This document shows, one piece after another, positions 313 to 25,969 of a stretch of 32,000 nucleotides of DNA. The translations under genes and the position numbers were made by a program. The notes under the pieces are model-generated. The model did not search any database. It was not told where the DNA came from and saw nothing but the letters and a program-made list of their open reading frames with translations. The DNA is from Crocosphaera subtropica ATCC 51142 (GTDB lineage: Bacteria; Cyanobacteriota; Cyanobacteriia; Cyanobacteriales; Microcystaceae). The stretch covers positions 1,050,001 to 1,082,000 of the forward strand of contig NC_010546.1 of the NCBI RefSeq assembly GCF_000017845.1, in the 5' to 3' direction. The stretch's first letter is position 1; each line of letters opens with the position of its first letter.

Positions 313-323
313 AGGTGGTCAAT

Positions 324-1382
324 ATGCCAAGTCAAACTTTTGAAACACTTTTTGGACAATTTCAGTCTAGCCCCCAAGACCCTTTAGCTAGTATGGGGCA
401 ATCAACAGCAAAAAATTTTAATGCGTTCAATGTTCAGATTAGTTGTTTATTGGATCATGTCAATTTTCTTGAGAAGGTTGATCAACAAGATCCTATCTTG
501 AAATCTCAATTCTCTCGCAAAACATTTGAACAAGACGTTATTTCTGTATTTAATCAATTGGAAGATAACATAAGAACGCTTAGCCAAAGTGCTGTCCCTA
601 TTCTCAAGGCAATGAGGCACTCAAACAGTCTTGAGATAGGATTTGAGCAATTACGAGACGGACTACGGCAAACTGGCTCGGTTCAGTTCTTGGAATTGAT
701 GCAAGAGACTTTTGAGCAACAGCCAATCTCAGGGGAAGTGAATCAACTCGTCAGTTCTGAAAATCTTCAACAGTTATTTCAGAAGATAAAGAATAGTCAA
801 ATTCAAAGCTTCGTTGATGTTCAAGATGAGAAGTTGCATTTTAATATTCAGAAAGATCAGAATGAGGAATTTTTTGTTAAATTACCTGATAAGAATCAAC
901 AGAAAACGTCACTTAATCAATTAATACATCAAGATGATGTTGACGAGATATTAAATGCTTTTCTTCAAGGAGAGATAATCAACGCCTTTGTCATCTCTCA
1001 GGAAACTCAAAAGTCAGACACTATAACCATTGATGATATCCTGGTTGACCTAGGGTTGATTCCATCTCATGTATTGCATGAGCGTGTTCGTGAGCTAGAA
1101 GATGTGGGTTTGCCAGTCTATCAAGGAAATGATGGGGGCTTAAGTGCATTAGCGATCACTGGATTAATTATTGTTGGCGTTGGTATTGCTGCAGCACTCG
1201 TCGGTGCAGCTTTACTGATAGCCTGTAATACCACTGGTGATGACGATCTGTGTCGCTACGGTTTATGGACATTAACTCTTGGTCTGGCGACAGCTGCCAC
1301 TGGTTTGTTTCTTTTGTCTTGTGCCTATGGCGGCTGTGCCATAGCTGCTGAGCTTGCTGTGGAGGCTTTTAAGAGAATTTGA
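324..1382 (+). CDS. Hypothetical membrane protein. It has a Q/E-rich soluble N-terminal region of about 270 aa and two C-terminal Gly/Ala/Cys-rich transmembrane helices.
   Basis: The ORF track gives 315..1382 with a GTG start. The ATG at 324 follows AAAGGTGG by about 5 nt, which makes a better ribosome-binding-site geometry. The hydrophobic stretches LSALAITGLIIVGVGIAAALVGAALLIA and GLWTLTLGLATAATGLFLLSCAYGG map to roughly nt 1140-1334. The stop lies 3 nt before the next ATG. Confidence 0.6.
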   Translation: MPSQTFETLFGQFQSSPQDPLASMGQSTAKNFNAFNVQISCLLDHVNFLEKVDQQDPILKSQFSRKTFEQDVISVFNQLEDNIRTLSQSAVPILKAMRHSNSLEIGFEQLRDGLRQTGSVQFLELMQETFEQQPISGEVNQLVSSENLQQLFQKIKNSQIQSFVDVQDEKLHFNIQKDQNEEFFVKLPDKNQQKTSLNQLIHQDDVDEILNAFLQGEIINAFVISQETQKSDTITIDDILVDLGLIPSHVLHERVRELEDVGLPVYQGNDGGLSALAITGLIIVGVGIAAALVGAALLIACNTTGDDDLCRYGLWTLTLGLATAATGLFLLSCAYGGCAIAAELAVEAFKRI

Positions 1383-1385
1383 AAA

Positions 1386-1844
1386 ATGATTTTTTATGAT
1401 TTCTTGTGGCTTCCTGAACACATTGTTAACGACTTGAGGTTCTGTTTTCAGAAAACCTCTTTAGTTGGTAGTGAGTGTTGCGGTCTGATTCTGGGTAGCT
1501 ATCAAAAATATATTGCTCATGCGCAACAGCTTCTCCCTGTTCATAATGTGCATCAACAGAAAAATAGCTTTATGCTACCGTTACATACCTATCGTCAAGC
1601 CAAGTATATAAGCAAAAAGTGTAATTGGGATATTATCGGAATCTATCATAGTCATCCAAATGGTAAGCCCTATCCGAGTCCTATGGATGTTCGTGGCATA
1701 GAAAACTCCGACTATCCTTGGCTTATACTAGCACCTGCTTGTAATAAACAAGCTGGACTCGAATTAGTTGCATTTCAGCCAGGTACAATGAAGCCGATCA
1801 CCATTCATACCAAATCCGCTTTAGATACCCCCTTTAAAAATTAA
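1386..1844 (+). CDS. JAMM/MPN+ (JAB, Mov34/PAD-1 family) zinc metallopeptidase
   Basis: The JAMM signature is complete: E30 (SECCG) and H88-S-H90-x7-S98-x2-D101 (HSHPNGKPYPSPMD, nt 1647-1688). At 152 aa it matches stand-alone bacterial JAB proteins. Confidence 0.8.
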   Translation: MIFYDFLWLPEHIVNDLRFCFQKTSLVGSECCGLILGSYQKYIAHAQQLLPVHNVHQQKNSFMLPLHTYRQAKYISKKCNWDIIGIYHSHPNGKPYPSPMDVRGIENSDYPWLILAPACNKQAGLELVAFQPGTMKPITIHTKSALDTPFKN

Positions 1845-4784: not shown

Positions 4785-5642
4785 TCAACAAATGTTTAAA
4801 TTTAAAGATAATTGTTGACTTTTGATGACAGTTTTTTCGGTTTGATAGTTTCTAATAAAAATTTCTTGTCCTTTTTTGGCTTTTCCTTGTTTATAATTAT
4901 TCATGCCATATTGTAACTGCCAAGGAATAATATTAAAGTCTTGAAAATAGTTTCTAATCTCTTGAGCATCATCATAAGTAATTAACCATTTATGCTGACA
5001 TTCTTTCATGGTTTCGGCAAAGTCTTGATGATTAAATAAGGTATGTAAGTCGCCATCTTTGCCATATAGTTTAGATTTAGTTGCGGTTAAATAAGGAGGA
5101 TCTAAAAAAATAAATGTATTTTCACATTTGTTGTTGATAACTTCTCGATAATCTAAGTTGGTAATACGAATTTCTGGAAGAATATGACCCAACTTTTCAA
5201 CCCGAGCAATAGATGATTCTGTAAATCTACTGTTAAAGGATCTTTCTGAGTAGCCTCCTGATTCAATAGTTCCTGAAAAAGTAATCCTATTTAATACAAA
5301 AAAGCGCACTGCTCTATCAAAATTGGATATTTTTTCTACATCAACTTGACTTAATTCTGTAAATAATTCCCGTCCATTTTTTCTATTTTTTTTGATGTTT
5401 CTAAGTTCAGTAACTAATGTTTTTAAATCTGACTGGGCAACTTTCCAAAATAAGTACAATTCTGGGTTTAAATCATTAATCCAAATGTCAATATTCGGAT
5501 AAATTTGTTTAAGATAAATAAACACCGAACCACCCCCAACAAATGGCTCTCGATACTCAGAAAAATTGTTAGGTAATTGTTCTTGTATTTGTTTAACTGC
5601 TCTTGATTTTCCACCAGGATAACGTAAGGGACTTTTAATCAT
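4785..5642 (-). CDS. dam: Dam-type (alpha-class, D12) N6-adenine DNA methyltransferase, with no adjacent endonuclease
   Basis: Contains N-terminal PLRYPGGKSR, an AdoMet motif FVGGGSV, and catalytic FLDPPY. Motif I precedes motif IV, as in Dam. Confidence 0.85.
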   Translation of the reverse strand: MIKSPLRYPGGKSRAVKQIQEQLPNNFSEYREPFVGGGSVFIYLKQIYPNIDIWINDLNPELYLFWKVAQSDLKTLVTELRNIKKNRKNGRELFTELSQVDVEKISNFDRAVRFFVLNRITFSGTIESGGYSERSFNSRFTESSIARVEKLGHILPEIRITNLDYREVINNKCENTFIFLDPPYLTATKSKLYGKDGDLHTLFNHQDFAETMKECQHKWLITYDDAQEIRNYFQDFNIIPWQLQYGMNNYKQGKAKKGQEIFIRNYQTEKTVIKSQQLSLNLNIC

Positions 5643-9573: not shown

Positions 9574-9759
9574 GTGGGAAAGAAAAACCATAAGAAAACG
9601 ATTCGTTCTTTAACAAAAAGAATTGAAGAACATCAAGAAAAAATTAGACAAGAGTATGCTAAAGAATTACCTGATGAGGGACTTATCCATCATTGGCAAG
9701 CTGAAATAGCTGCGTTTAAAAAAGGAATTAAACAAGCTTATAAAAGATTAGGCAGATAA
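9574..9759 (+). CDS. Small basic hypothetical protein (61 aa)
   Basis: GTG start, Lys/Arg-rich and predicted helical. The stop lies 3 nt before the next ORF's ATG. Confidence 0.4.
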   Translation: MGKKNHKKTIRSLTKRIEEHQEKIRQEYAKELPDEGLIHHWQAEIAAFKKGIKQAYKRLGR

Positions 9760-9762
9760 ATT

Positions 9763-10023
9763 ATGCAACTTAAAGAAACTATTTTACCTATTAAAAACAA
9801 CACTTTAAATCATTTATTATCAGAATTATCTGAAGAATGTAATAACGTTACTATTTTGATTAATCAATTACAATTATCTGAAATTACAGAGAAACAAAAA
9901 GCACAAATTTTAGCTGAACTATTAACAGCAACCATTCATTTACAGGTTCATTGTGGTGAAAGTTTTCAAGACTTAATTGCTGAAGAAATAGAAACTTTAC
10001 CCGATGATGATGAAATAGATTAA
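9763..10023 (+). CDS. Small acidic hypothetical protein (86 aa)
   Basis: ATG start with an acidic C-terminus (LPDDDEID). It is tightly coupled to the preceding small basic ORF. Confidence 0.45.
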   Translation: MQLKETILPIKNNTLNHLLSELSEECNNVTILINQLQLSEITEKQKAQILAELLTATIHLQVHCGESFQDLIAEEIETLPDDDEID

Positions 10024-10252: not shown

Positions 10253-13200
10253 TTAAAATAAATGTTCTAATTCTGCCACTTCTAAAACTGTTTTCCACCC
10301 TTCCATTCCGGCACACCAAATATAGGTTTGAGGTGTTACTCCTTGGGTTAATAACTCATCTTCAGAAAAGGGGCCAGTTTGTTGATTCTCTTGATAAAGA
10401 TACCATTTTTTAGGTGTCGGGGGTTGGGGCGGTTGGGGCGGTTGTTTACTCTTTATTTCTTCAGTATTACTAATAGCATCAGTTGCATACAGTTGATGAT
10501 CATCAATCAATCTTTTAATAATTTCTGCCTCTCGTTTATATTCGGGACTATCTTTGCGCCCTTGTTTTTCTAATTCTAAGGATCGATGTTCTAAATAAGC
10601 GGTTAAGGTTTGATAAAGTTGGCGTTTTTGTTGAGGGGTTTCTGCTTGGTTTAACTGTTCGGTAATTTGTCGTTGTATTTCCTCGCGATCGGGACGACAG
10701 GCACGAACTTCTAATATTTGTGACGCTTCTTCCCAACTTGAAGCAATATCGACGTTTTCTAGACCTATATTGGTTTTACGAGTGTAACGAATCGTGTTTT
10801 CTCTAGTGGCTTGATTTTCTGATAAGTATAAGACATTTAATGCCCTTGCTTGAATCACTAATTGAAAGATTTTCGGATCTTCGGGAAACACATCCCAAAA
10901 AGGTGGTTCTTTTTGAATGTGAACAGGAATGGGTAAGTCCCTGGGTTCTCCTCGTAATTGGGCCCGTTTCGCTTCAATACTATCCCCTTTCCAGTCTTGA
11001 TAGGATTGTCTTAATTCTTTCATCCCATCAATACAACGTAAAGAAAAGCCTCCCGTTTCTTGTACAAATACGATACGATGGCGTTCAGAATCCCCTAAAG
11101 GTTTAATGGCACTTTCTTTAATATCGGGGAATTGTTGTAGTAAAGGAAGCAATTTTTGAGCAGCAGGATCGGCAGTATTTCTACCGCCTAAAATGCCAAC
11201 ATTGACGTTAGTTGAAGGGGTAAACCCTGCATCTTTTCCTGATAAAACTGCCCTATCCATCATAATTAAGGGCTTAGATTTATGATAAGCAATGCGAATA
11301 TTATCGGTAATTTCTGTCTCGTCATTGTAGAGTTTGAAGAGGCGATCGCAAGCTGCCATTTCGGTGTAAAGATGGGCATTTTTAGGGGTTTTATCCACCA
11401 CGGTTTCTTTACTATAATTGTAGATAATTTCTTCTAGGTCTTCTTGCTGTACATCGGGAATTTTGGGAATATCAAATAAGCGCATATATTCATCAGCAAG
11501 ACGATTTTTCTTCCATAAAGGACTGGCTTCGTGCAGGATATCTTCTGAAAGGGTACTACAAATTTGATCCAGTCCCATTTCAAAGCGACTTTTACTCCCT
11601 TGAACGCTAGATCCTAATTTTTCAATTAAGTCTTGATACAGTTCATTCATCTTATCTCTATCATATAATTTGATGCCATTAATGGTTAAAACATCGGCAC
11701 TTTCTGCTTGATGATCGGCTTCTTTGGCAAAGTCATCTCTTGTTTGTATCAAACGCTGTTGAAAACGGTTTAAGCGTCGCTCTAAATTGTCTAATTCTTC
11801 TTTTAAACGATCAATGACAACTAAGGAAGCAGCGCGTGTTTTTCGCTGGATAGTTGCCACTAAACTTCCTTGAAGATTCTCTAATATAGTATTACAACAA
11901 ATTATCATTCTATCTTGTTTTGTAATACCATATTGGGATTTGATTTGACTAAATTCTTCTAATGCTGTTTCATATTGTTTTTGTCTTTCTGTTTCTTTGG
12001 GTTCCCAAAGTTGTTCTTTTTGTTGACTAAATCTTTGTCTGGTATCGTCAAAAATTTGTCTTACCATCGTAATAAAGGTATGAGCAAACTTAGGACCTAA
12101 GTTACGATCTTCAATAATACGATAAAGTTCTGTTTCTAACGCTTTTCTTCCTTGGGCAATGGTGCGATTGCGGTTATCATAAATTCTTTGGAAATAATCC
12201 CCATGTAACCGCTCATCAGGACTTAATTCTCGAAAATGATCTTGTTTATAATTATTAACTTCTTCTTGAATAAATTGATCTAACTCTTTGATTTTTCCCT
12301 GTTCTTTACCAAAAATATTAATTCCCTTTGCCGTACATTGTAAATAATTTTCTTGGTTAATGGTTTGTCGTAGGTTATTAACCCATTGAGACACTTCTTC
12401 AATATAAGATTTATCTTGCGCTGCTCCCATATCGGCTAATAATTCTACGTCGCTTAAACGCATTTTTTTGAGAATATCACTTTTAATCAATTCCATCGAA
12501 TCTGCTGGCAGTTGCACTTGTTCATTTAACCACCAATTAACGATATCTTTAGCGAGGCGATAACATAAAGAATTTCTAATCTGAAAAATAGGAATTTCAA
12601 TGGTAGATAAGCCAAAACTCATAAAGTTTTTGGGATAACCTCTACCGCCAGGATCAGCTTGCGCCCAAGCTGATTTAATATTATCTCGAATAGATCGCTT
12701 ATGGGGAGAAAAATCTGAAGTCAAATCTAAGAAAATATTTTGTGCGATCATTTCCCGTATTTGATCGAGTTTAAAGTCACTTTCTCCGTTTTTGGTTCCC
12801 ACTAAATAGGTAAAATCAAAGGGGGCGCGGTTGCTGCGAACTTCATCAGCTAAGTTCTTACTAAATTGACAATTATATTCGGTTCGATAGTCAGAAAAAT
12901 AGCTTAATTCCATCATGGCTGCGTAGCCATTTGCTAAGACACGATCACCCACTTTTATGCCAGCAAAAGCTTGAGGCATGGGAACAATAGCAGTAACTAA
13001 AGGACTGCCTTCTGCTTCTAACCATTTACGCACACAGTAGCCGATATCGATGAGCATTCCACTTCCAGTTCCTCCAGAAAGTGATCCGGTTACAAACACA
13101 TTAACGGCGTTGGTACTGACTTTAATACCATAGCGATCTAACATAAAATTTTCACGGCCTTTAATGCGATTTACTGCCTCTACAAATTTATCTCTAATAT

Positions 13201-13594
13201 CATGATAATTACAAAATAAGGCAAATCTTCCACAGGCACGAATTTGTCCGGCACCAGCTTCTAAAGAGGTAATATTTCTTTCTAATTCTCTCGGAAACCA
13301 ACTATCAATCCAGGGATATTGTTCCATATTAGAAACCATATCGCTAACTTGTTTCCCGCTAACACTAGCCCAATGTTTTTCGTGATCTTTAAATTTACTT
13401 CCCCCGGCTTCTGGGTTACTAATTTTATAATCTTTATCCGTATCAACCACTAAAAAACTGAGGATAGGAAACGCCTCTAAACTGCCGTAGGTTTCTTCGA
13501 CTAATCTGCGTATTCTTGATAATATTTCTGCGCCGGTTCCCCCCACACCCACTAAGACGGTGGGAACCATGCTTTTTTCTTCTACTGCTGCCAT
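10253..13594 (-). CDS. Large tubulin/FtsZ-superfamily GTPase-like protein with a long coiled-coil region, a PQ-repeat linker and a C-terminal GYF-like domain
   Basis: Three GTP-binding loops are readable. T1-like is VLVGVGGTGAEI (aa 13-24). T3-like is EAGAGQIRACGR (aa 112-123; compare FtsZ GLGAGANPEVGR). The T4 signature is SGGTGSGM (aa 173-180, nt 13055-13078; compare tubulin GGGTGSG). The C-terminus reads QPPQPPQPPTP followed by WYLYQENQQTGPFSEDEL...YIWCAGMEGWKTV, which is GYF_2-like. A strong AGGAGG sits 6 nt before the ATG at 13594. Confidence 0.8.
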   Translation of the reverse strand: MAAVEEKSMVPTVLVGVGGTGAEILSRIRRLVEETYGSLEAFPILSFLVVDTDKDYKISNPEAGGSKFKDHEKHWASVSGKQVSDMVSNMEQYPWIDSWFPRELERNITSLEAGAGQIRACGRFALFCNYHDIRDKFVEAVNRIKGRENFMLDRYGIKVSTNAVNVFVTGSLSGGTGSGMLIDIGYCVRKWLEAEGSPLVTAIVPMPQAFAGIKVGDRVLANGYAAMMELSYFSDYRTEYNCQFSKNLADEVRSNRAPFDFTYLVGTKNGESDFKLDQIREMIAQNIFLDLTSDFSPHKRSIRDNIKSAWAQADPGGRGYPKNFMSFGLSTIEIPIFQIRNSLCYRLAKDIVNWWLNEQVQLPADSMELIKSDILKKMRLSDVELLADMGAAQDKSYIEEVSQWVNNLRQTINQENYLQCTAKGINIFGKEQGKIKELDQFIQEEVNNYKQDHFRELSPDERLHGDYFQRIYDNRNRTIAQGRKALETELYRIIEDRNLGPKFAHTFITMVRQIFDDTRQRFSQQKEQLWEPKETERQKQYETALEEFSQIKSQYGITKQDRMIICCNTILENLQGSLVATIQRKTRAASLVVIDRLKEELDNLERRLNRFQQRLIQTRDDFAKEADHQAESADVLTINGIKLYDRDKMNELYQDLIEKLGSSVQGSKSRFEMGLDQICSTLSEDILHEASPLWKKNRLADEYMRLFDIPKIPDVQQEDLEEIIYNYSKETVVDKTPKNAHLYTEMAACDRLFKLYNDETEITDNIRIAYHKSKPLIMMDRAVLSGKDAGFTPSTNVNVGILGGRNTADPAAQKLLPLLQQFPDIKESAIKPLGDSERHRIVFVQETGGFSLRCIDGMKELRQSYQDWKGDSIEAKRAQLRGEPRDLPIPVHIQKEPPFWDVFPEDPKIFQLVIQARALNVLYLSENQATRENTIRYTRKTNIGLENVDIASSWEEASQILEVRACRPDREEIQRQITEQLNQAETPQQKRQLYQTLTAYLEHRSLELEKQGRKDSPEYKREAEIIKRLIDDHQLYATDAISNTEEIKSKQPPQPPQPPTPKKWYLYQENQQTGPFSEDELLTQGVTPQTYIWCAGMEGWKTVLEVAELEHLF

Positions 13595-13638
13595 GTTCGC
13601 CTCCTAATTCTTACTCTCTATTTTAACCTGAGTTCGGG

Positions 13639-14622
13639 TTAAGCAGATTCAGGTAAAACCCAGTCCATTTCAAGAGAAGGTTTTTTGGGTTGATGACAAT
13701 AAGCAATTAATCCACAAAGGAGGTTTACACAAAAATTGACAGGACTACGGTGACGAGAATGTTCTATTTGAGAGATATTTTTTAATTGATCAATAATTGT
13801 CTCAATAATCGAGCGTTTACGTGATAAAAGCTTGTCGTGAAGTCGCATGAGTTTATTCTTCATATTGCGTCTCGGTTTAGCAAAAAACTCAATTCCCAAA
13901 TTGTCTAAAAGCTCTGAAGCTAATTTCTGGGAGACATAGCCTCGGTCAGCAAAAATTTTGCCAAAAAGCCCTTCAACAAGTTCTAGGACGGGGTTGCGGT
14001 CATCGACATTACCAGCAGTAATGCTGACGTTAAGCAATTCTCCTTGCTCATTAACCACTAAATGCAGCTTAAAGCCAAAAAACCAATCTACTGAAGTTTT
14101 ACCGCGTGCAGCTAGACCATCAAACACTTTATGCCTTGAAATCCGTCGATTATGACAAACTCCCGACCCACCTGGATTTAAAATCCAGGTGGAAAGCGGG
14201 AGTGCATTCCGCACTTTGATGCTCGTAGAATCGAGAAAACTGATCCCACTGCATTGCCCAAAACAATGTTTGAGATAGACACACAAAGGAATTAGGGTCG
14301 AAGGCATCCATTCAATAAATCGTTGATAACTAGGTAAATGGGGAAATTCCGCACGAAAATGACAACAAACTTCCTCAAGATAATAATGTTTGAAGTTACG
14401 ATAGTGATTAGCGTGAAAAACAATTAAAATTGTCATAATCTCACTTAAACATAAGCATTTCCTTCGTTGACGAGTTTGAAAACCATGAGAAATTAATTGT
14501 TTATGCCACAATGGTTCAAAAGTTTGGCAAAAGTCATCTACATGGCAAAATGCGGAGCGAACTGTTCCGAGGTTCCCTCGGAACCAGCACGCGCACCAAG
14601 ATAAAGCATCTATACTAAACAT
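13639..14622 (-). CDS. IS982-family DDE transposase
   Basis: Contains [42 protein letters not shown] and ADRGY, the signatures I associate with IS982 transposases. Two short palindromic segments sit in-frame inside the ORF. Confidence 0.8.
14159..14203. repeat. 45-bp imperfect palindrome embedded in-frame in the transposase gene
   Basis: actcccg-acc-cacctggattt/aaaatccaggtg-gaaag-cgggagt forms an 11-bp inner stem and a 7-bp outer stem. It encodes ..[15 protein letters not shown].. between IKV and CHNRRI. Confidence 0.8.
14564..14584. repeat. 21-bp hairpin (9-bp stem) embedded in-frame near the transposase 5' end
   Basis: gttccgagg-ttc-cctcggaac is flanked by gcg...cgc. It encodes part of [17 protein letters not shown], just before the conserved FCHVDDFC. 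Confidence 0.75.
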
Positions 14623-14695
14623 GGGGAGGAGTTACTGAATATTTGTCTTATTTTCAGCTTACTACTCCTTCCTTTCCTTATCCCGAACTCAGGTT

Positions 14696-16275: not shown

Positions 16276-17259
16276 TTATAAATTAATCAGCCATTCACAT
16301 AATGAAATTAACTGGTTATCATCAGTTAAATTAGCAGCATTAGATAAATGTTTAGCGTCAAGCTGATTAAAAATTTCTTTGGCCATTGCTTTTTCAATAG
16401 CAGCACCAATAAAAAACGTTTTAGGATGTAAATCATTTGACAAGAATGCCTTTTTAATGCGATTTAATGCGGAGTTTGCGGTTTTCCAATGTTCATCTGC
16501 ACCTGCTGGATCAATGCCTCCTTTTAATTCTTCAAGTGCTATATAATTAGAAGGAAAGTAATGACAAGAGTTTTTATTGTTTCTTCTCATAAATTGCTCT
16601 GGTTTAGCATCAAGTAAACAGAGATCGACATTTTTTTTAACAATAGGTACAGTAAGATTATAAATTAAAGTTCGAGCTTGATTACTCTTATTCCAAGATA
16701 GTCCCTTTAAAAATATTTCAACATCAGCATCATCTTGAGAACCTACTATCCATTCTTTTGATTTTGAATGTAAATAGCAATAACTTATCCCCTGTATACT
16801 TAACGTTGCTATTAGCATCCTGGTCATTTTTCTTTCACCTAATACACCTCCTAAATTTCTTATGATTCCTCCTAATGAGTCACCTCGTGTGAGCAAAAAA
16901 CGATAACCTAATTCATCGACAAAATCTTTTGCTGCTGGTTCAAGGAAATTCTCAATTAATCTTTTTATAGCCTCATTTTTATCATTTTCTGTAAGGTACT
17001 TTTTAGCTTTATCAGAAACTCCTGAAGCAGTTAAAAGAGCCGATTTTATTTGAGTTATGTTAATTAATTCAATTGGACTTTCAATTGTGGAAGCTATAGA
17101 TTTCAGAGCTTTTGCTTCTTCAACAAATGGAGTAGCTTTCCTATTTTTTTCTAATGCAAGAGAAATGAAACCCGCTCTTGTTTGTTCATAAGATGTGACT
17201 AAAGATTCCCAAGAACTCAAATGTTTTTTATAATCAAAGTTGGTCCTTTTTTTCTCCAT
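16276..17259 (-). CDS. Candidate type II restriction endonuclease, called from position and a PD-(D/E)xK-like motif
   Basis: It lies immediately downstream of the methyltransferase and overlaps it. The strand-like VDLCLLD followed 26 aa later by IALEELK fits D...ExK. It also has an LLTRGDSLGGIIRN motif. The track start is 17271; the ATG at 17259 (MEKKRT..) is an alternative. Confidence 0.45.
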   Translation of the reverse strand: MEKKRTNFDYKKHLSSWESLVTSYEQTRAGFISLALEKNRKATPFVEEAKALKSIASTIESPIELINITQIKSALLTASGVSDKAKKYLTENDKNEAIKRLIENFLEPAAKDFVDELGYRFLLTRGDSLGGIIRNLGGVLGERKMTRMLIATLSIQGISYCYLHSKSKEWIVGSQDDADVEIFLKGLSWNKSNQARTLIYNLTVPIVKKNVDLCLLDAKPEQFMRRNNKNSCHYFPSNYIALEELKGGIDPAGADEHWKTANSALNRIKKAFLSNDLHPKTFFIGAAIEKAMAKEIFNQLDAKHLSNAANLTDDNQLISLCEWLINL

Positions 17260-18119
17260 ACATAAACACACTTTCTTAAGGGTTTTCTTCCATGAGTTCC
17301 CATTTGTTGACTACTGTTTCCTTTGCCATTTGGTAAAACTAAAATTTTTTCTATCATAAATCCTAAATTTTCAGCAATTTTAGACAATATTAAGTCAATG
17401 GATATACTAGCTCCAGCATAACGAACATTATCATTAACCATAAATAAAAATCCATCATCTTTTAGTATTCTAAAAGATTCTTGTATCACACATGACATTT
17501 CATAAAAGTAACCCTTAACCATTCTTAAAATACCATTATTATTTAGCTTTTTAATTTCTTTTTGATAGGATAAATAACGCAGAATTGTTTGTAAAAGTTG
17601 ATTGTTATCACAAATTTTAATTGCTTTTTCCCAATCGTTATTGATTTCAAGTAATGCTTTTTCTTTATTTTCAACTGTACAACTTAATAATTCTTGTCTT
17701 AACTGTCTTAACTTTTCTTCATCGACTCCTAATAAAGCTAATTCTAAGGCATAGGTTCGAGTGTAATCATATCGATTACAATAAGGAGGTGAGGTAATCA
17801 TTGCAGTATATTGATTAGATTCAATTTTCGGTAATATATTTAAACAAGAGCCTTGATATAATTTAACATTACCAGATTTTATTAAATTATCATTAAATAA
17901 TGATAGTTGTTTCTCATCACCTTGAAGATCATTAATAATTTCCTCAAGCTTAATTGTGATAGCTTCTTCAAAATTATAAATTTTTCCTTTGTCAAAGGCA
18001 CGACTTTTTATTTGTCTTCCAGAACGATAGTCCCATCGTAAGTATTGCCCATCTTTCCTGGTGAAACTCACAGATTCGAGAATGCTTAAAAGTGCTGTTA
18101 ATAAAATTTTCTGCACCAC
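17217..18119 (-). CDS. DNA N6-adenine/N4-cytosine methyltransferase, catalytic part (motif IV SPPY)
   Basis: Contains VKLYQGSCLNILP...AMITSPPYCNRYDY (SPPY at nt 17781-17792) and the C-terminal ...LRKCVYVWRK. It has no AdoMet-binding FxGxG motif of its own. GTG start. Confidence 0.7.
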   Translation of the reverse strand: MVQKILLTALLSILESVSFTRKDGQYLRWDYRSGRQIKSRAFDKGKIYNFEEAITIKLEEIINDLQGDEKQLSLFNDNLIKSGNVKLYQGSCLNILPKIESNQYTAMITSPPYCNRYDYTRTYALELALLGVDEEKLRQLRQELLSCTVENKEKALLEINNDWEKAIKICDNNQLLQTILRYLSYQKEIKKLNNNGILRMVKGYFYEMSCVIQESFRILKDDGFLFMVNDNVRYAGASISIDLILSKIAENLGFMIEKILVLPNGKGNSSQQMGTHGRKPLRKCVYVWRKKGPTLIIKNI

Positions 18120-18170: not shown

Positions 18171-18656
18171 TTATTTTGTATAAGCACCTTTAGTGATTTT
18201 TAAAAAAGTCAAGTTATCTAAACCTTTTGACTGTTTCCAAGGCTGATCTTTTTGCCAATACTTTAATCTAGATATTTCAAAATTTTGTGCTTTATTCACT
18301 CCATATATTTTATTTTCAATCAGTTTAATTCCAATAGGTAATAACTCAATTCCTTCAGTATCATATCCTAATTCAGATGCAGCAAAAAGGGTTGTTCCTA
18401 TTCCAGCAAAGGGATCAAAAACAATTCCTTTTCGTACTTTATAGTCTTGCAAGAGAAATTTAACTAAACGTGATGAAAATGCTTCTTTATATTTATACCA
18501 TCGATAGAAAGCTTCTGTCTTATTAGCTTGAAAACTAACCAATGTTCTGTCTAATTGATTGTTAACTACTAAGACATCGTTAAAGTAGGTTAAAAGTTGT
18601 TCATCTAGGCAATTGATAGTAAATAATAAATTTTCAGATTTTGGGTCAGGTAACAT
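18171..18656 (-). CDS. DNA methyltransferase, AdoMet-binding part (motif I)
   Basis: Contains YRWYKYKEAFSSRLV...VFDPFAGIGTTLFAA (nt 18390-18416). It ends at a TAA that is in frame with the SPPY-containing ORF 16 codons downstream. Confidence 0.7.
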   Translation of the reverse strand: MLPDPKSENLLFTINCLDEQLLTYFNDVLVVNNQLDRTLVSFQANKTEAFYRWYKYKEAFSSRLVKFLLQDYKVRKGIVFDPFAGIGTTLFAASELGYDTEGIELLPIGIKLIENKIYGVNKAQNFEISRLKYWQKDQPWKQSKGLDNLTFLKITKGAYTK

Positions 18657-20852: not shown

Positions 20853-23800
20853 CTACCATAATGGCGGTTTATCAGAAGAAGGTTCAGGTTTAGGTTGAAG
20901 GATTTTTTGATTATTCTTATCAGATGTTTGAGTTGTTTTAGGACTAGGAGAAGTTTTCGGTCTATTGTTTGCTTGTTGGCGATTTTTCAACTGTTGAATA
21001 TTAGCGGTAATATTTTCAATTGTCTGATTAATTTTTAACAGTTGTTCATTAATTTGTACTTGTAACGTTCTATCTCCATTCGTATTAATAGTTTGGAGTC
21101 TATTTTTGATGGTGTCCCACTGACCTTTAGCAAGGTTATAGTCTTGAATTGTTGTAGCGGATTTCGTTTGAATCATGGCTTGTTTGATCAAATCGTTAAT
21201 ATTATTAAACTGTTGTCGAAACTGTTGTTTTTTGACAACTTGCTGATTAATTTCTTCAATTTTATTATTAATCGTGTTAATTGTTGTCTCTGTTGATTGT
21301 TTTTCTGTTTGTACTTGAGAAGCGAAGAATTTTGCTGAAGAAATCTGATCCAATTGTTCTTTTACCTGTTCCCATTGTTGTTTCGCTTGTTGATAATCTT
21401 CGAGGGTATTAGCTGTTTGTAAAATTTGAGTCGCTTCTATGGCTAATTGAGAGGCTTCTGTCAATTGTTTTTGTGCTGATTCTTCTTCAGAAAGAGTCGT
21501 ATCAACTTGGGCTAACTGTTTTTCAAAGCGGTTTAATGTTTCTTGAGATTGAGGATAAATAGAGACATCAGTGGGCAAATTTTTCAATTGACCCATAATA
21601 GCCACCAAGCGATCGCGGTATTCTTTTAATTCTTCAAAACTTTCTGCATTTTCCATCTCTAATATAACCCCTTCTCCTTCCGTTAGAGCTTGGGTGTATA
21701 ACCCTTCAAATTCTCGATCCCTAGCACAATTATCCAACAGTTTACACACACCAGCAATATAGGGCGATTGCAGGGTCATTCCTAGGACTCCCAACGTCAA
21801 AAAAGCAGTTATAAACCCGGCTGCCACATAGCCTATTTTTATACCAAAAGGGGAAGAACGTTGGGGTGAACTAGGCTGTTTTTTTATTGTCTGAGACGGT
21901 TTAACGGTTCCTAATACATATTGTTGACAAATAAGAGAGGCTTGTTTTTCACTCTCCGTTTTCGGGTGTCGTAAACGAGGGTGATCTTGTAATCTTTGAG
22001 CGCAAATTTTTAACCAAGTTTGCCAAGTTCCCCCCATTTCGATCTTAAGGGTTCCATCTAAATAACCACTAATTAACTGTTGGCCATCAGGACTAAACTC
22101 AATACAAGTCACTTCACTATTTTGATGAGGCTGAGGATAACTTAACGATTCTCCTTGAACCGTCCATAAACGCAAGTTACCATCCGATCCACCACTAGCC
22201 ACGATTTGACCATTGGGACTAAAGGCAATCTTAGTAATCGAAGCATCATGACAGGCAAGAATCGGCCGTTGAGTGACATTTTTGAGATCCCAAAAACAGA
22301 GATTTCCCTGTTCGTGGCCACTAACTAAAATATTCCCTTGGGGACTCATAGCCAGATCAGTGATTTTCCCTTGATTACTCTTAGATATCATCGTTCCTAA
22401 CCATTGGCTTTCTTCTGGCCATTGTTCACACTGAGGGAAGTCGAAGTGCCAAATTTGACCTCTAGCATCGCTGGCCATCACTTTTTGACCATCAGGGGTA
22501 AACAGGACTGAAGTAATTTCATCTTCCATCTGTCCCTGCTGACAGAACTGACCCTGAGAAGTCCACAGTTTTACCCTGCCATCCTGTCCCCCAGTGACAA
22601 GATAATTGCCTTGGGGATGATACGCCAGACAAGTTACATCCCCGTCATGGGCTTTAATTAACTCGGTGAGAGGTTTTCCTTCTCCAGTCCATAGACGAAT
22701 GGTTTCATCCCAACTACCAGTGACAAAACTGTCTCCTTGGGGACTATAAGCGATACAAGTAACATCCCCATTATGGGCCTGAATCGGGTTGCTGATGGGC
22801 TTGCCCCCTAAATTCCAAAAACGAATCGATCCATTACCCCAATTACTGATCAACCGTTGACCATCCGGACTCATCCCTACCGCCCAAACCGCACAATATT
22901 CACTCTGAGTCCCTTTAAACAACCGTTGACCTTCAATGTCCCAAAACCGAACCTCCTGGTCACTACTACCGCTAATTAAGGTTTTCCCATCGGGGGTAAA
23001 AGCGATGTCTCGAATCGATCCTTGATGACCCAGAAAAGGGGCATAAATCATCTGTCCGTAACGGTTCTGGAGGCGAATGGTGCGATCGCTACTACCACTG
23101 GCAATCATTTCACCATCGGGACTAATGGCCACACATAAGACATAATCCTCATGACCTTCTATGGGAGGACCCATTTCTTTACCTTCTAAATTCCAAAGGC
23201 GAATGGTTTTATCCCAACTCCCACTAATAAAGTAATGACCATCGGGACTAAAGGCTACTGACTCGATGCGTTGTTGATGAGTGGTAATGGGATCAATGAT
23301 TTCTTTACCTTCTAAATTCCAAAGGCGAATGGTTTTATCCCAACTACTACTGACAATGGTTTGACCATCAGGACTAATAGCAATGCTAGTGATTTCTCCG
23401 TCGTGTCCCCAGAAAGGGGGTTTAAGGGGTTCTCCTTGAAAATTCCACATTTTGAGGCTGCGATCGCTGCTACCAGTGATAAAATAATCCCCTTGGGGAC
23501 TACAAGCTAAGGCCGTTATCCCTGCGTCGTGGCCTTCTATGGGATGTGTGACCGCTTGTCCGTGGCGGTTCCAGAGGATAAAGGTGCGATCGCTACTACC
23601 ACTGATCAGATATTGACCATCGGGACTAAAGGCCAAAGTGGTCACTTTTTCCCCGTGACCCGATAAAGGATCTATCAGTAATTGTCCTTGAGGGTTCCAC
23701 AGGCAAATGGTTCCGTCCCAACTGCCACTAGCAATCATGGTTCCATCGGGACTCACGGCCACTGTGGATACTTTGTCTTGATGACCGAAACAGCAATTTT

Positions 23801-24041
23801 TTTCCCTTGCCCCTTCTAGGGTAGCCCGTAAACTCGCTTGTACAGTGGGTAAAATGGTTTGGGGCAGTTTCTCTATGTTTTCTCCGACGGTTTCAATGGC
23901 TAGAGTTAAACTATCGAGGGGTCGTACTGGGAGAAGTTGGGGCGATCGGGTTGCTTTTTCCCTTAATGTTGATTGAATCAGGGCATCATTTAACTGTTTA
24001 ACGTTTTGTTTTGGAGTCTTAACTGGATGAAATTTCCACAT
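20853..24041 (-). CDS. WD40-repeat protein (14 blades) with one transmembrane helix and a C-terminal coiled-coil, low-complexity tail
   Basis: I counted fourteen SP(D/Q/N)G...W(D/N) repeat units, consistent with two 7-bladed propellers. These are followed by the TM helix [22 protein letters not shown] (nt 21771-21836). The final ~300 aa are Q/E/K-rich heptad-like sequence ending in a Pro/Lys-rich tail. Confidence 0.85.
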
Positions 24042-24106: not shown

Positions 24107-25396
24107 TTATAATTTACACTCAGACAGTCTTGGGGTTAAATAGGACATTCGACTATAAACGACAGCAATGTTTAGACCCCAACTCCAACGGGGTAAATGA
24201 CCAGGAGGAGCATTAAGAGAGAAGTTAAGGTCATCATATAAATAATAATCGGGATCATTAGGGTTGTCTTGTTTTGCCCATCCCACTTGTTGAGCAAATT
24301 GACGATAAATATTGATATCAACGGTTTCAGAAAGACCTAAACTTTTATAAATTCGTTGTTGTACACTTAAGCCAAATTGACCTTGGGAAGATTCGACCCA
24401 AAGGCGATCGATGGTTTGTAAATCTTCACAAGCAATATCTTCTAATTCGGTACTGGTAATAAACCCAGAATTATCTTGATCCCCTGCTTTTGTCATCAGA
24501 TCGTAGGTCATTTCATCGGCCTGTTGCCATTTTTGTTCTTGTAATAAGGTTTTTAACGCCGTATAGTCAACTCCTGTGGTTTGGGACACTAGGGTAGTCG
24601 AAGGAGGATTTTGAGAGGGTTGAACGGGATCAATAATAATAGTAGGAGTTGGGGGTGGGGGGGGTAAAGCACTGCTAGAGGAGGTTTTTACCTTAGCTAA
24701 TAAGGTGGGAGTGATGGCAATACCTAGATTGAACCCTGTTTTGACGTAGATGTTATCATAGTCTGTGCTTTGGGTTTGAGTGGTATCAGCCCGTCCATGA
24801 ATGCCTACCACTTCCCCTTGTTCGTTAAAGACGGGGCCGCCACTCATGCCGGGTAGGGTATCATTGGTGTAAACTAACCCATAACCATCTCTTAAATCTC
24901 CTGAAGCCGTAGCGGTCAGTTTTCCGGGAACAAAGGTATAAATCGAAGCATCAATGGCTGTGGTAGGTAAAGGAAATCCGGATACATAGACCGTTGTTCC
25001 TTCAATCAGTCGTTCTCCGTTGCCTAGTTTCGCCGTTTCGTAGGGGCGATCGCTATTAAATTCGAGGATGGCTAAATCCATCCCTGAAATAACCTCTATG
25101 TTATTGGTATTAATTAAATGACGTTTTTGGTCAGAGGTAACCACATAAGCTTCTTCTCCAGGGTAGACATTCCCTACTACATGGGCAGCCGTAAAGAGAC
25201 GATAGGTATTACCGATTTTATCAAAAATAACCCCGGTACCGTTACTCCCTGGACCTTCGATTAAAACGGTCACATTTTTTGCCAAACGACTAATTTGCGT
25301 CGCTGATAAAGCCATAACAGAAAACGTGGGAACAGTCAGGATCATAACTATTGTTCCCACCCTGGGCATTAAATATTGACAAAGATAGTTATCCAT
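24107..25396 (-). CDS. Trypsin-like serine protease fused to a GUN4 (porphyrin-binding) domain, with an N-terminal signal or anchor
   Basis: The catalytic triad contexts are TAAHVV (H72), DLAILEF (D107) and GMSGGPVF (S185). A Pro/Ser linker follows. Then comes DYTALKTLLQEQKWQQADEMT...CEDLQTIDRLWVESSQGQFGLSVQQRIY, which closely resembles the GUN4 core as I recall it. Confidence 0.8.
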   Translation of the reverse strand: MDNYLCQYLMPRVGTIVMILTVPTFSVMALSATQISRLAKNVTVLIEGPGSNGTGVIFDKIGNTYRLFTAAHVVGNVYPGEEAYVVTSDQKRHLINTNNIEVISGMDLAILEFNSDRPYETAKLGNGERLIEGTTVYVSGFPLPTTAIDASIYTFVPGKLTATASGDLRDGYGLVYTNDTLPGMSGGPVFNEQGEVVGIHGRADTTQTQSTDYDNIYVKTGFNLGIAITPTLLAKVKTSSSSALPPPPPTPTIIIDPVQPSQNPPSTTLVSQTTGVDYTALKTLLQEQKWQQADEMTYDLMTKAGDQDNSGFITSTELEDIACEDLQTIDRLWVESSQGQFGLSVQQRIYKSLGLSETVDINIYRQFAQQVGWAKQDNPNDPDYYLYDDLNFSLNAPPGHLPRWSWGLNIAVVYSRMSYLTPRLSECKL

Positions 25397-25450: not shown

Positions 25451-25969
25451 TTAGTTAGAGTGTTTGGCTTGAGTGAGATAATCCTCAAAATTGATATAAA
25501 CTCGACCGGAGGTTTCGTTTAATGGGCCACTGGCGTGAACTCGTACAGCCATTAATTGTTTTAAGGCTTGAGTGGGATCACTTCCCGGTTTTAAGGTAAA
25601 TAGCAGTCCTTCACAACTTCCACCTTGTTTCTGGGTAACGCAAACCACAGGCATACGGTTCATACGTCCGGTGGTTAGGTATTTTAACTGTCCACTGTTA
25701 TAAAAGTATTGAAAACGACCCGATACTAATTGACACCGGGTACTAGGATCGTAACCAGAGTCACTGAAATAGTCGGACTGCCATACTAAAACGGGAACAC
25801 TTTCTTGATCTGGAGTTTTCGCTAAGGTAGCAGGAACCCCCTGCCAGTTTTGACAAAGAAAGTTAGTACCAACATTTTTAGCTTGTATAGACGGGTTGAA
25901 GCCAAAATGACTGATGGCTACTGTTGCCCCAACAGTGGCAAGGGTGGCTAATAAATTTACTTTCATCAT
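25451..25969 (-). CDS. COP23 (circadian oscillating polypeptide) family secreted protein
   Basis: Has a signal peptide, then F.C..W.G.P.T......PV.VW.S..F...GY....RC..VS.RFQ and C.G.LFTLKP. This cysteine pattern matches the COP23 family. Memory-based call. Confidence 0.65.
   Translation of the reverse strand: MMKVNLLATLATVGATVAISHFGFNPSIQAKNVGTNFLCQNWQGVPATLAKTPDQESVPVLVWQSDYFSDSGYDPSTRCQLVSGRFQYFYNSGQLKYLTTGRMNRMPVVCVTQKQGGSCEGLLFTLKPGSDPTQALKQLMAVRVHASGPLNETSGRVYINFEDYLTQAKHSN

Follow-up and report, generated by a model that had tools for sequence, protein, structure and literature searches.

cce_1067 of Crocosphaera subtropica: an FtsZl1 protein with a GYF_2 tail, separated by an IS-associated rearrangement from the sensor and VWA genes that are its probable partners

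The gene cce_1067 lies on the reverse strand of a 32,000-nucleotide stretch (the window) of the genome of Crocosphaera subtropica ATCC 51142, formerly Cyanothece sp. ATCC 51142 (contig NC_010546.1, positions 1,050,001 to 1,082,000). We can assign its product with near certainty to the FtsZl1/Tubulin_2 branch of the tubulin/FtsZ superfamily, and the gene is very probably one member of a three-gene module that also encodes a sensor and a VWA protein. The partner genes are intact elsewhere in the genome; a rearrangement with a breakpoint at the end of an insertion sequence (IS) has separated cce_1067 from them. Family and gene have both been catalogued since 2010, and the locus adds no new family. 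What our analysis adds is a swappable tail with GYF-linked PPxPP motifs, a conserved zinc-knuckle sensor and the IS-associated split of the operon.

The translated gene is 100% identical to the recorded protein of the strain, and the G+C content of the region (0.36-0.40) is like that of the flanking DNA. The Pfam profile Tubulin_2 (PF13809) matches residues 13-352 with E=1.1e-115 (387 bits, cut-off 27; positions 1-355 of the 356 in the profile), and GYF_2 (PF14237) matches residues 1064-1109 with E=9.1e-14 (51.4 bits, cut-off 25.8; positions 1-50, the whole profile). A preliminary description of the locus had proposed a tubulin/FtsZ-like GTPase ending in a GYF_2-like module, and both assignments are borne out. 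The classical Tubulin profile (PF00091) scores 19 bits, below its cut-off of 33, and only in the T4 region, and the Pfam search found no match to FtsZ_C or Tubulin_C. Thus the features by which a canonical FtsZ is recognised, namely PF00091 above threshold, FtsZ_C and the T7 loop NxDxxD, are not those of cce_1067. An exhaustive homology search with the protein returned 4844 cluster representatives at E<=1e-3.

FtsZl1 was defined by Makarova and Koonin (Biol Direct 2010, 5:33; PMC2875224), who list cce_1067 itself in their Additional file 1. They described a coiled-coil region, a C-terminal domain they were unable to assign, and vWA genes as frequent neighbours, reported that the cyanobacterial clade is inherited vertically, and proposed a role in membrane remodelling; a role in division was judged unlikely because the proteins coexist with conventional FtsZ. 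A phylogenetic study of 2023 includes Tubulin_2 proteins as an outgroup only (PMC9871819). Literature searches by the locus tags of orthologues (cce_1067, tll1020, MAE_54080, Npun_AF098, PCC7424_5168, glr0982) returned no papers, and searches on FtsZl1, Tubulin_2, vWA and defence returned nothing functional, in keeping with the earlier remark that this divergent family has no established function. The lists of 2010 contain no member from Synechocystis, Synechococcus or Prochlorococcus, which is plausibly why model strains have yielded no functional data. cce_1067 shares with the family the full-length profile match, loops T1-T6, a length of ~1000-1100 residues, a helical region followed by a unique C-terminal region, the common vWA gene partner and membership of the vertically inherited cyanobacterial clade; T7/H7 and FtsZ_C or Tubulin_C are recognisable in neither. 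A vWA gene next door is typical of the family but no part of its definition. It differs from other members in its GYF_2 module after PPxPP, which occurs in the Crocosphaera clade only, and in the split of its operon in ATCC 51142.

Conservation of the nucleotide-binding loops was judged in 85 orthologues and in 107 distant, long FtsZl1 representatives. Motifs GVGGTGAE and SGGTGSG, noted previously, are both present, and the T3-like motif is real (EAGAGQIRACGR), although its first residue had been misread as G (GAGAGQ...). The glycine-loop residues of T1, T3 and T4 are invariant in the orthologues (in T1: G18, G19, T20 and G21) and near-invariant in the distant set, where G18, G19 and G21 are found in 105/107 and T20 in 97/107, G114, R119 and R123 of T3 in 106, 107 and 104, and T4 in ~106. 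The distant representatives also retain D51 of the DTD after strand 2 (T2; 107/107), P207 of T5 (92/107) and N269 of T6 (81/107). We take this DTD to be the equivalent of the T2 motif NTD of FtsZ, and the T3 loop resembles the GAGxxPxxGR motif of FtsZ. Because the nucleotide-binding residues are conserved in orthologues and distant representatives alike, GTP binding by the head is strongly predicted. As a candidate for a catalytic residue of T7 type we considered D304, which lies in KRSIRDNIK, a motif invariant in the orthologues; it was rejected, as only 42/107 distant representatives conserve it. This poor conservation agrees with the statement of 2010 that T6-H7 and the C-terminal domain escape identification in FtsZl1 (PMC2875224).

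A full-length AlphaFold2 model built on the 85 orthologues has a mean pLDDT of 80.8 and a pTM of 0.65. Its best Foldseek matches in the Protein Data Bank (PDB) are CetZ2 (4b45_A, E=3.7e-4), gamma-tubulin (9h9q_A) and beta-tubulin (5o7a_D), all with probability 1.00, E-values of 4e-4 to 8e-4 and ~350 aligned columns. The GTPase head superposes on all three, but identity is only 10-13%, the target-normalised TM scores of 0.38-0.49 mean that only part of each target is well matched, and the downstream architecture is unrelated. When the sequence of cce_1067 and the 85-sequence family profile were searched against all PDB chains, no relative was found, only a weak GYF match and chance hits, and the profile does not reach FtsZ or tubulin by sequence alone; no FtsZl1 member is among the solved structures. 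Aligning the family profile to Escherichia coli FtsZ with hhalign gave S4-T4-H4-S5-T5 over 45 columns only, pairing SGGTGSG...PMPQAFAG of the cce_1067 family with GGGTGTG...KPFNFEG of FtsZ; T6, H7 and T7 of FtsZ could not be mapped onto the profile by this method. cce_1067 thus shares with FtsZ the superfamily fold and the same loops (T1 GGTG, T2 xTD, T3 GAG..GR, T4 GGTGSG, T5), but it has neither FtsZ_C nor the NxDxxD loop, carries ~650 extra residues between head and linker, and does not lie within a division gene cluster. Dynamin-like/BDLP membrane-remodelling GTPases were considered as an analogy only, and cce_1067 is not one of them, the head being tubulin-type and not P-loop.

The ~650 residues after the head had been described as helical and rich in heptads. 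This is correct for residues 366-690, which include helices of 53 (500-552) and 77 residues (559-635), but residues 700-1035 are mixed alpha/beta in the model, with an alpha/beta block at ~794-880, a beta-meander at 923-951 and three helices at 964-1032. The orthologues share three invariant motifs in this C-terminal body: IVFVQExGGFSLRC, PIPVHIQKEPPFWD and GGKDSPEYKRE. No Pfam family matches residues 700-1035, and a separate AlphaFold2 model of residues 700-1040 gave nothing significant in a Foldseek search of the PDB (best E=0.63). High confidence in that model is restricted to residues 905-1035. Block 795-850 falls from a pLDDT of ~85-90 to ~36-55, and this drop hints that the block is packed onto the remainder of the protein. 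ClyA-type pore-forming toxins, the MxA stalk and chemoreceptors were rejected as kin of the helical region, with E>=0.01 and rmsd 20-55 Å (MxA stalk, E=0.16 and ~20 Å), values expected of generic long-helix matches. Among 109 long, distant FtsZl1 proteins, collinear homology covers the head in ~100%, the helical region in ~65%, block 750-870 in 50-60% and residues 900-1035 in 25-30%. Given this collinearity, the ~1000-residue body of head, long helices and alpha/beta C-terminal region is the norm of the family; the idea of a fusion peculiar to cce_1067 has to be abandoned.

Orthologues outside Crocosphaera are 60-67% identical to cce_1067 over 93-98% of its length, across orders. Their conserved core ends at GGKDSPEYKRE...YKL, and is followed by a variable Pro/Ser/Thr/Gln-rich linker and a small terminal module. 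In the 116 cyanobacterial orthologues whose tail could be classified, this module is a zinc ribbon (82), GYF_2 (19, all in the Crocosphaera clade), SHOCT (10) or something else (5). Terminal zinc ribbons and SHOCT domains recur in 13 and 3 of the 109 distant FtsZl1 proteins, respectively, and a terminal GYF in none of them. The 9-bp periodicity of the QPPQPPQPP tract had been recognised earlier, and the repeat is indeed perfect. PPxPP or PPPP occurs in the linkers of 16/19 GYF-tailed orthologues, compared with 4/82 zinc-ribbon-tailed and 2/10 SHOCT-tailed ones. The suggestion that the proline-rich tract and the GYF module belong together is thereby given correlational support, and it has a precedent in the GYF domain of GltJ (PMC11135422), but the enrichment comes from a single clade. 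An interplay between tract and module is a reasonable idea. By comparison with the XPORK-15E orthologue, dN/dS is ~1.2 in the linker, 0.15 in the GYF module, 0.05 in the head, 0.10 in the helical region and 0.12 in the C-terminal body; the linker drifts neutrally and the terminal module is constrained. A homology search with linker plus GYF tail, for a donor or for other PPxPP-GYF units, brought up nothing beyond two fragments of the same orthologues.

The GYF domain of GltJ, a component of the Myxococcus gliding machinery, binds a proline-rich sequence with micromolar affinity, and the zinc ribbon (ZnR) and GYF modules of GltJ are adaptor switches on flexible linkers (PMC11135422; PDB 7z3c). 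As in cce_1067, a bacterial GYF_2-type domain sits on a flexible linker; ZnR and GYF are small cytoplasmic adaptors of an envelope-spanning complex, and a GTPase is involved. In GltJ, however, the modules sit at the N-terminus of the membrane protein, with the Ras-like MglA as the GTPase, whereas in cce_1067 the module is C-terminal on the tubulin-like GTPase; moreover, ZnR and GYF are partners in GltJ and alternatives in FtsZl1 orthologues. The sequence match of the cce_1067 module to the GltJ GYF structure is weak (E=0.29), and the match of this region to the NCBIfam GltJ model (E=2e-4) is far under its cut-off. In the AlphaFold2 model the module is beta-beta-alpha with a pLDDT of ~60. FtsZ offers a second parallel, as its disordered, fast-evolving linker also carries a small conserved docking element (the FtsA/ZipA/SepF-binding peptide); in FtsZ this element is a short peptide, in FtsZl1 a folded domain (GYF, ZnR or SHOCT).

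The neighbourhood of FtsZl1 was surveyed in 80 loci, one genome per species, 73 of which had enough upstream DNA to be judged. In 53/73 loci a VWA gene directly precedes FtsZl1 on its strand, and in 42/73 the sensor gene is there too; both precede the FtsZl1 gene on the same strand in Fischerella, Gloeothece and Crocosphaera XPORK-15E, for example. Nostoc punctiforme (Npun_AF097/AF098), Anabaena variabilis and a Leptolyngbya also carry the module intact. The count for the VWA gene agrees with the family-level vWA association published in 2010, where the sensor is listed for Arthrospira only and dismissed as lineage-specific (PMC2875224). The VWA partner has ~300 residues and a conserved DLSxSTY motif of MIDAS type. 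Its VWA domain is preceded by one hydrophobic helix and followed by two, and there are positive charges on the protein's short N-terminal tail and on the inter-helix loop. The only invariant residues in 45 copies of the sensor are C6, G8, H22, C32 and C35, all in an N-terminal knuckle of ~45 residues; one transmembrane (TM) helix and a periplasmic solute-binding domain follow, which is Peripla_BP_6 in 25 copies and the unrelated PBP_like_2 in 9. FtsZl1 itself (cce_1067) has no TM segment. We conclude that sensor, VWA protein and FtsZl1 very probably form a three-gene module of which cce_1067 is a member.

In some lineages genes for Ser/Thr kinases, COP23, Trypsin_2 and Pilin_GH proteins stand directly downstream of FtsZl1. 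Across the 80 loci COP23 is found near FtsZl1 in 18, Trypsin_2 in 22, Pilin_GH in 12 and a Ser/Thr kinase in 25 (Microcoleaceae and several other lineages); the literature on COP23 holds expression data only. Compared by domain layout alone, the VWA partner has the TM-VWA(MIDAS)-TM arrangement of BatA/BatB-type proteins, and the frequent Ser/Thr kinases near the module recall the TerY-type vWA signalling triads. No MoxR ATPase or PP2C phosphatase, as in those systems, was seen adjoining the FtsZl1 module.

cce_1067 had been described as solitary and without operon partners. This holds within the window, where tblastn with the partner proteins found no copy of the VWA or sensor gene, but the partners are adjacent in most relatives and intact elsewhere in the C. 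subtropica genome. There the VWA partner (P0127), 76% identical to its XPORK-15E counterpart, is part of an intact cluster of ferritin-like, FTR1, sensor and VWA genes, and the partner genes are under purifying selection (dN/dS 0.07-0.11 against Cyanothece sp. BG0011). In BG0011, whose FtsZl1 is 95% identical to cce_1067, the order is sensor, VWA, small nucleotidyltransferase gene and FtsZl1, and the C. subtropica partner locus matches BG0011 through the nucleotidyltransferase gene. BLASTN homology between the window and the loci of BG0011, C. chwakensis and C. watsonii begins 31 nt upstream of the ATG and goes no further than the stop codon; its upstream limit (13625) is the terminal inverted repeat of the IS. 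Simple insertion of the IS into the operon in place was rejected, as the DNA downstream of the C. subtropica VWA gene has no match to the window and the DNA beyond the far IS end has no match to the ancestral upstream region. Since neither flank matches the other, the event was a rearrangement with its breakpoint at the IS end, and it separated cce_1067 from its intact partners.

A similar junction is present in C. chwakensis CCY0110 (L019:7964), where upstream synteny is lost at -37 nt, compared with -31 nt in ATCC 51142. The C. chwakensis FtsZl1 gene is an intact solitary copy whose downstream synteny with BG0011 is kept, whereas both flanks differ in ATCC 51142. The junction just upstream of the ribosome-binding site looks recombination-prone. 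Transcription of cce_1067 may depend on read-through from the IS or on an outward promoter, given that the IS is co-oriented and ends 31 nt before the ATG. The small nucleotidyltransferase gene lies at L012:7560-7850 in BG0011, between the VWA and FtsZl1 genes; the one after the VWA gene in ATCC 51142 (L009:4660-5171) has a HEPN-like partner and a reading frame with an internal stop.

The identity of 60-67% across orders and a whole-gene dN/dS of 0.06-0.11 indicate that the orthologues are vertically inherited and slowly evolving. A search of PADLOC-DB 2.0 gave no match for FtsZl1 at E<=0.1, and none for the VWA partner or the sensor. The earlier impression of an accessory-looking stretch is right as far as the mobile and defence-type neighbours go, but because of this vertical, slow evolution and the lack of PADLOC matches these surroundings are incidental to the gene.

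We tentatively propose that cce_1067 is the cytoplasmic GTPase of a three-protein envelope-spanning sensor module. Its partners would be a membrane-anchored VWA protein whose MIDAS motif is intact, and a sensor that combines a cytoplasmic C-H-C-C zinc knuckle, a single TM helix and a solute-binding domain in the periplasm. The head would bind GTP and self-associate into dimers or filaments beneath the cytoplasmic membrane, and assembly would be tied to the ligand state of the sensor in the periplasm by way of that protein's cytoplasmic zinc knuckle, the conserved cytoplasmic LPLDRWxFQG loop of the VWA protein, or both. Linker and terminal module may act like the C-terminal linker and docking peptide of FtsZ. 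In Crocosphaera the GYF module would bind a PPxPP tract, most likely that of a neighbouring subunit, and so cluster the subunits or gate their assembly. Candidate outputs are membrane or envelope remodelling, or the organisation of envelope proteins such as the COP23 proteins, trypsin-like peptidases and pseudopilins that co-occur in other lineages.

Several observations weigh against this proposal. An acidic T7-type catalytic residue is not conserved across the family, and a canonical tubulin/FtsZ C-terminal domain is not recognisable by Pfam or hhalign; for these two reasons the family may not form tubulin-like protofilaments. Adjacent partners are missing from 19/73 loci, all from Microcystis, Thermosynechococcus, Laspinema and C. 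chwakensis, and tight co-expression is therefore not required. The orthologue of C. watsonii WH 8501 (L020:8001-11317) is interrupted by a stop in frame (codon 99) and by a frameshift near codon 257, and looks like either a pseudogene or an assembly error; if it is the probable pseudogene, the system is dispensable in at least one relative. The VWA domain is predicted to be periplasmic by the positive-inside rule only. The GYF part of the model has low confidence, and the PPxPP enrichment, confined to one clade, counts as one evolutionary event. Finally, our literature searches found no functional or experimental study of any FtsZl1 member.

The chief rival, which we consider rather unlikely, is a GTPase switch that does not polymerise: a monomer or dimer cycling between GTP and GDP would relay the ligand state of the sensor through stalk and adaptor, with neither filament nor remodelling. 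Such a switch would fit the missing acidic T7 residue as well as the T6-H7 and C-terminal domain needed for protofilament contacts, which were identifiable neither in 2010 (PMC2875224) nor in the present analysis. R119 of T3, invariant in the distant set, could act in cis; the interchangeable solute-binding domains of the sensors are typical of signalling receptors, and a Ser/Thr kinase lies within 8 kb in 25/80 loci. On the other hand, all characterised members of the tubulin/FtsZ superfamily polymerise, a point also made in PMC2875224, and a long helical region with a docking tail on a flexible linker suits a scaffold better. A different possibility, to which we give little credence, is that the gene is a silenced or decaying remnant in ATCC 51142, cut off from operon and promoter by the rearrangement. 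Just 31 nt of native upstream DNA are left, the IS end abuts the ribosome-binding site, promoter-like matches in the region are no commoner than in shuffled sequence, and the C. watsonii orthologue carries its stop and frameshift. Yet all 1113 codons are free of lesions, the gene is 94-95% identical to its close relatives with a dN/dS of 0.06-0.07 (a value accumulated over the entire divergence, by which the IS event cannot be dated), the partners too are intact, C. chwakensis keeps an intact solitary copy, and the co-oriented transposase gene makes read-through transcription possible.

The neighbours in the window, among them the IS, a BsoBI-type restriction-modification system, Uma2 and an orphan Dam methylase, raise the question of a conflict or anti-phage system of the abortive-infection type, in which the NTPase would sense perturbation of the envelope and trigger trypsin-like peptidases or kinases. 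Ser/Thr kinase and Trypsin_2 genes do follow FtsZl1 in other lineages, with domains shared with the PADLOC models PD-T4-6 and LmuA, and toxin-antitoxin genes are inserted beside FtsZl1 in relatives. We nevertheless regard a defence role as improbable, as the core partners, one a solute-binding sensor and the other a VWA protein, are neither nucleases nor other toxic effectors, none of the three proteins has a PADLOC match, the matches of the neighbours are to generic kinase, protease and WD40 domains, and full-length identity across orders together with the low dN/dS is the mark of housekeeping and not of an arms race. Least probable of all is a role in iron acquisition, with sensor, VWA protein and FtsZl1 working alongside the ferritin-like protein and FTR1 permease. 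Their genes directly precede the sensor gene, on its strand, in C. subtropica (L009:512-1981), XPORK-15E (L006:5666-7061) and Gloeothece PCC 7424 (L001:4112-5519), but FTR1 is found in 7/80 loci and the ferritin-like gene in 6/80, all of them Chroococcales relatives; Fischerella, Microcoleus and others lack the association, and the sensors use amino-acid/urea-type or phosphate-type binding folds. We therefore judged the synteny to be lineage-restricted and rejected the iron-uptake link.

The features of cce_1067 and the adjoining IS are listed in Table 1.

Table 1. Position of cce_1067, its parts and the adjoining IS in the window
Feature	Position	Strand	Basis or remark
cce_1067 (FtsZl1/Tubulin_2 protein with C-terminal GYF_2)	10253..13594	(-)	intact ORF, ATG start, 1113 aa
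GTPase head of tubulin/FtsZ type, aa 13-352	12539..13558	(-)	PF13809 E=1.1e-115; Foldseek
T1 loop GVGGTGAE, aa 16-23	13526..13549	(-)	conserved glycine loop
T3 loop EAGAGQIRACGR, aa 112-123	13226..13261	(-)	conserved residues G114, R119, R123
T4 tubulin signature SLSGGTGSG, aa 171-179 (SGGTGSG, aa 173-179)	13058..13084	(-)	invariant in orthologues
Helical region, aa 366-690	11525..12499	(-)	AlphaFold2 secondary structure, pLDDT mostly 85-95
Conserved C-terminal body, aa 700-1035	10490..11497	(-)	AlphaFold2 model; mixed alpha/beta with beta-sheets
Disordered Pro/Gln/Thr-rich linker, aa 1036-1062	10409..10489	(-)	pLDDT <50 over 1038-1060; variable in all orthologues
9-bp tandem repeat encoding QPPQPPQPP, aa 1051-1059	10422..10444	(-)	Tandem Repeats Finder: period 9, 2.6 copies, 100% matches
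GYF_2 module, aa 1064-1109 (W-Y..GPF..W..GM..W, aa 1063-1109)	10268..10405	(-)	PF14237 E=9.1e-14
Remaining native upstream region with AGGAGG ribosome-binding site	13595..13624	(-)	BLASTN homology boundary
1071-bp IS at the synteny breakpoint	13625..14695	(-)	19-nt terminal inverted repeats 13625-13643 and 14677-14695
IS transposase ORF	13639-14622	co-oriented with cce_1067	DDE_Tnp_1_3 E=4.5e-66

The IS upstream of cce_1067 and two small open reading frames (ORFs) downstream are where the preliminary description had placed them. The latter (61 and 86 residues; 9574-10023 (+), 4 nt apart) are convergent with cce_1067 and have no Pfam or PADLOC match. Between 7 and 12 kb upstream, and like cce_1067 on the (-) strand, are genes for a 1062-residue WD40 protein (20853-24041), a Trypsin_2+GUN4 protein (24107-25396) and COP23 (25451-25969); the proximity of COP23 and Trypsin_2 to cce_1067 is either left over from linkage or due to chance. 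In the Trypsin_2+GUN4 protein, the GUN4-like C-terminal half matches the C-terminal part of one PADLOC PD-T4-6 model (E=3.5e-39) and the protease half LmuA-type models, a domain-level similarity to defence proteins. A BsoBI-type restriction endonuclease (16276-17271 (-), Pfam E=1.5e-166) lies beside what looks like a split or unusual methyltransferase, also (-), made up of a 300-residue ORF with no Pfam match (17217-18119) and a 161-residue ORF with only a C-terminal N6_N4_Mtase match (18171-18656). An apparently orphan D12-class N6-adenine methyltransferase is encoded at 4785-5642 (-), and a Prok-JAB domain protein (1386-1844 (+)) directly follows a 355-residue ORF with no Pfam match (315-1382 (+)).

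For annotation, cce_1067 is a warning: where a gene stands 'solitary' in a stretch that looks accessory, this may be the artefact of an IS-associated rearrangement. The split operons of two Crocosphaera strains and the probable pseudogene of C. watsonii are natural 'experiments' on a compact module that can now be defined as a sensor with zinc knuckle, TM helix and solute-binding domain, a membrane-anchored VWA protein and FtsZl1, and the tail of cce_1067, with its GYF module and PPxPP tract, offers a specific binding hypothesis. In a bolder and unlikely version of our proposal, the module would be a receptor-coupled cytoskeleton, a new transmembrane signalling device: the GTP-dependent assembly of a tubulin-superfamily protein under the membrane would be under the direct control of a periplasmic solute-binding receptor. 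That swappable modules (GYF with its own PPxPP, zinc ribbon or SHOCT) set the clustering of subunits in trans is an equally doubtful part of the same version. No branch of the tubulin/FtsZ superfamily is more divergent than FtsZl1; should its members polymerise with no canonical T7 loop or C-terminal domain, this would be a new mechanism of assembly in the superfamily.

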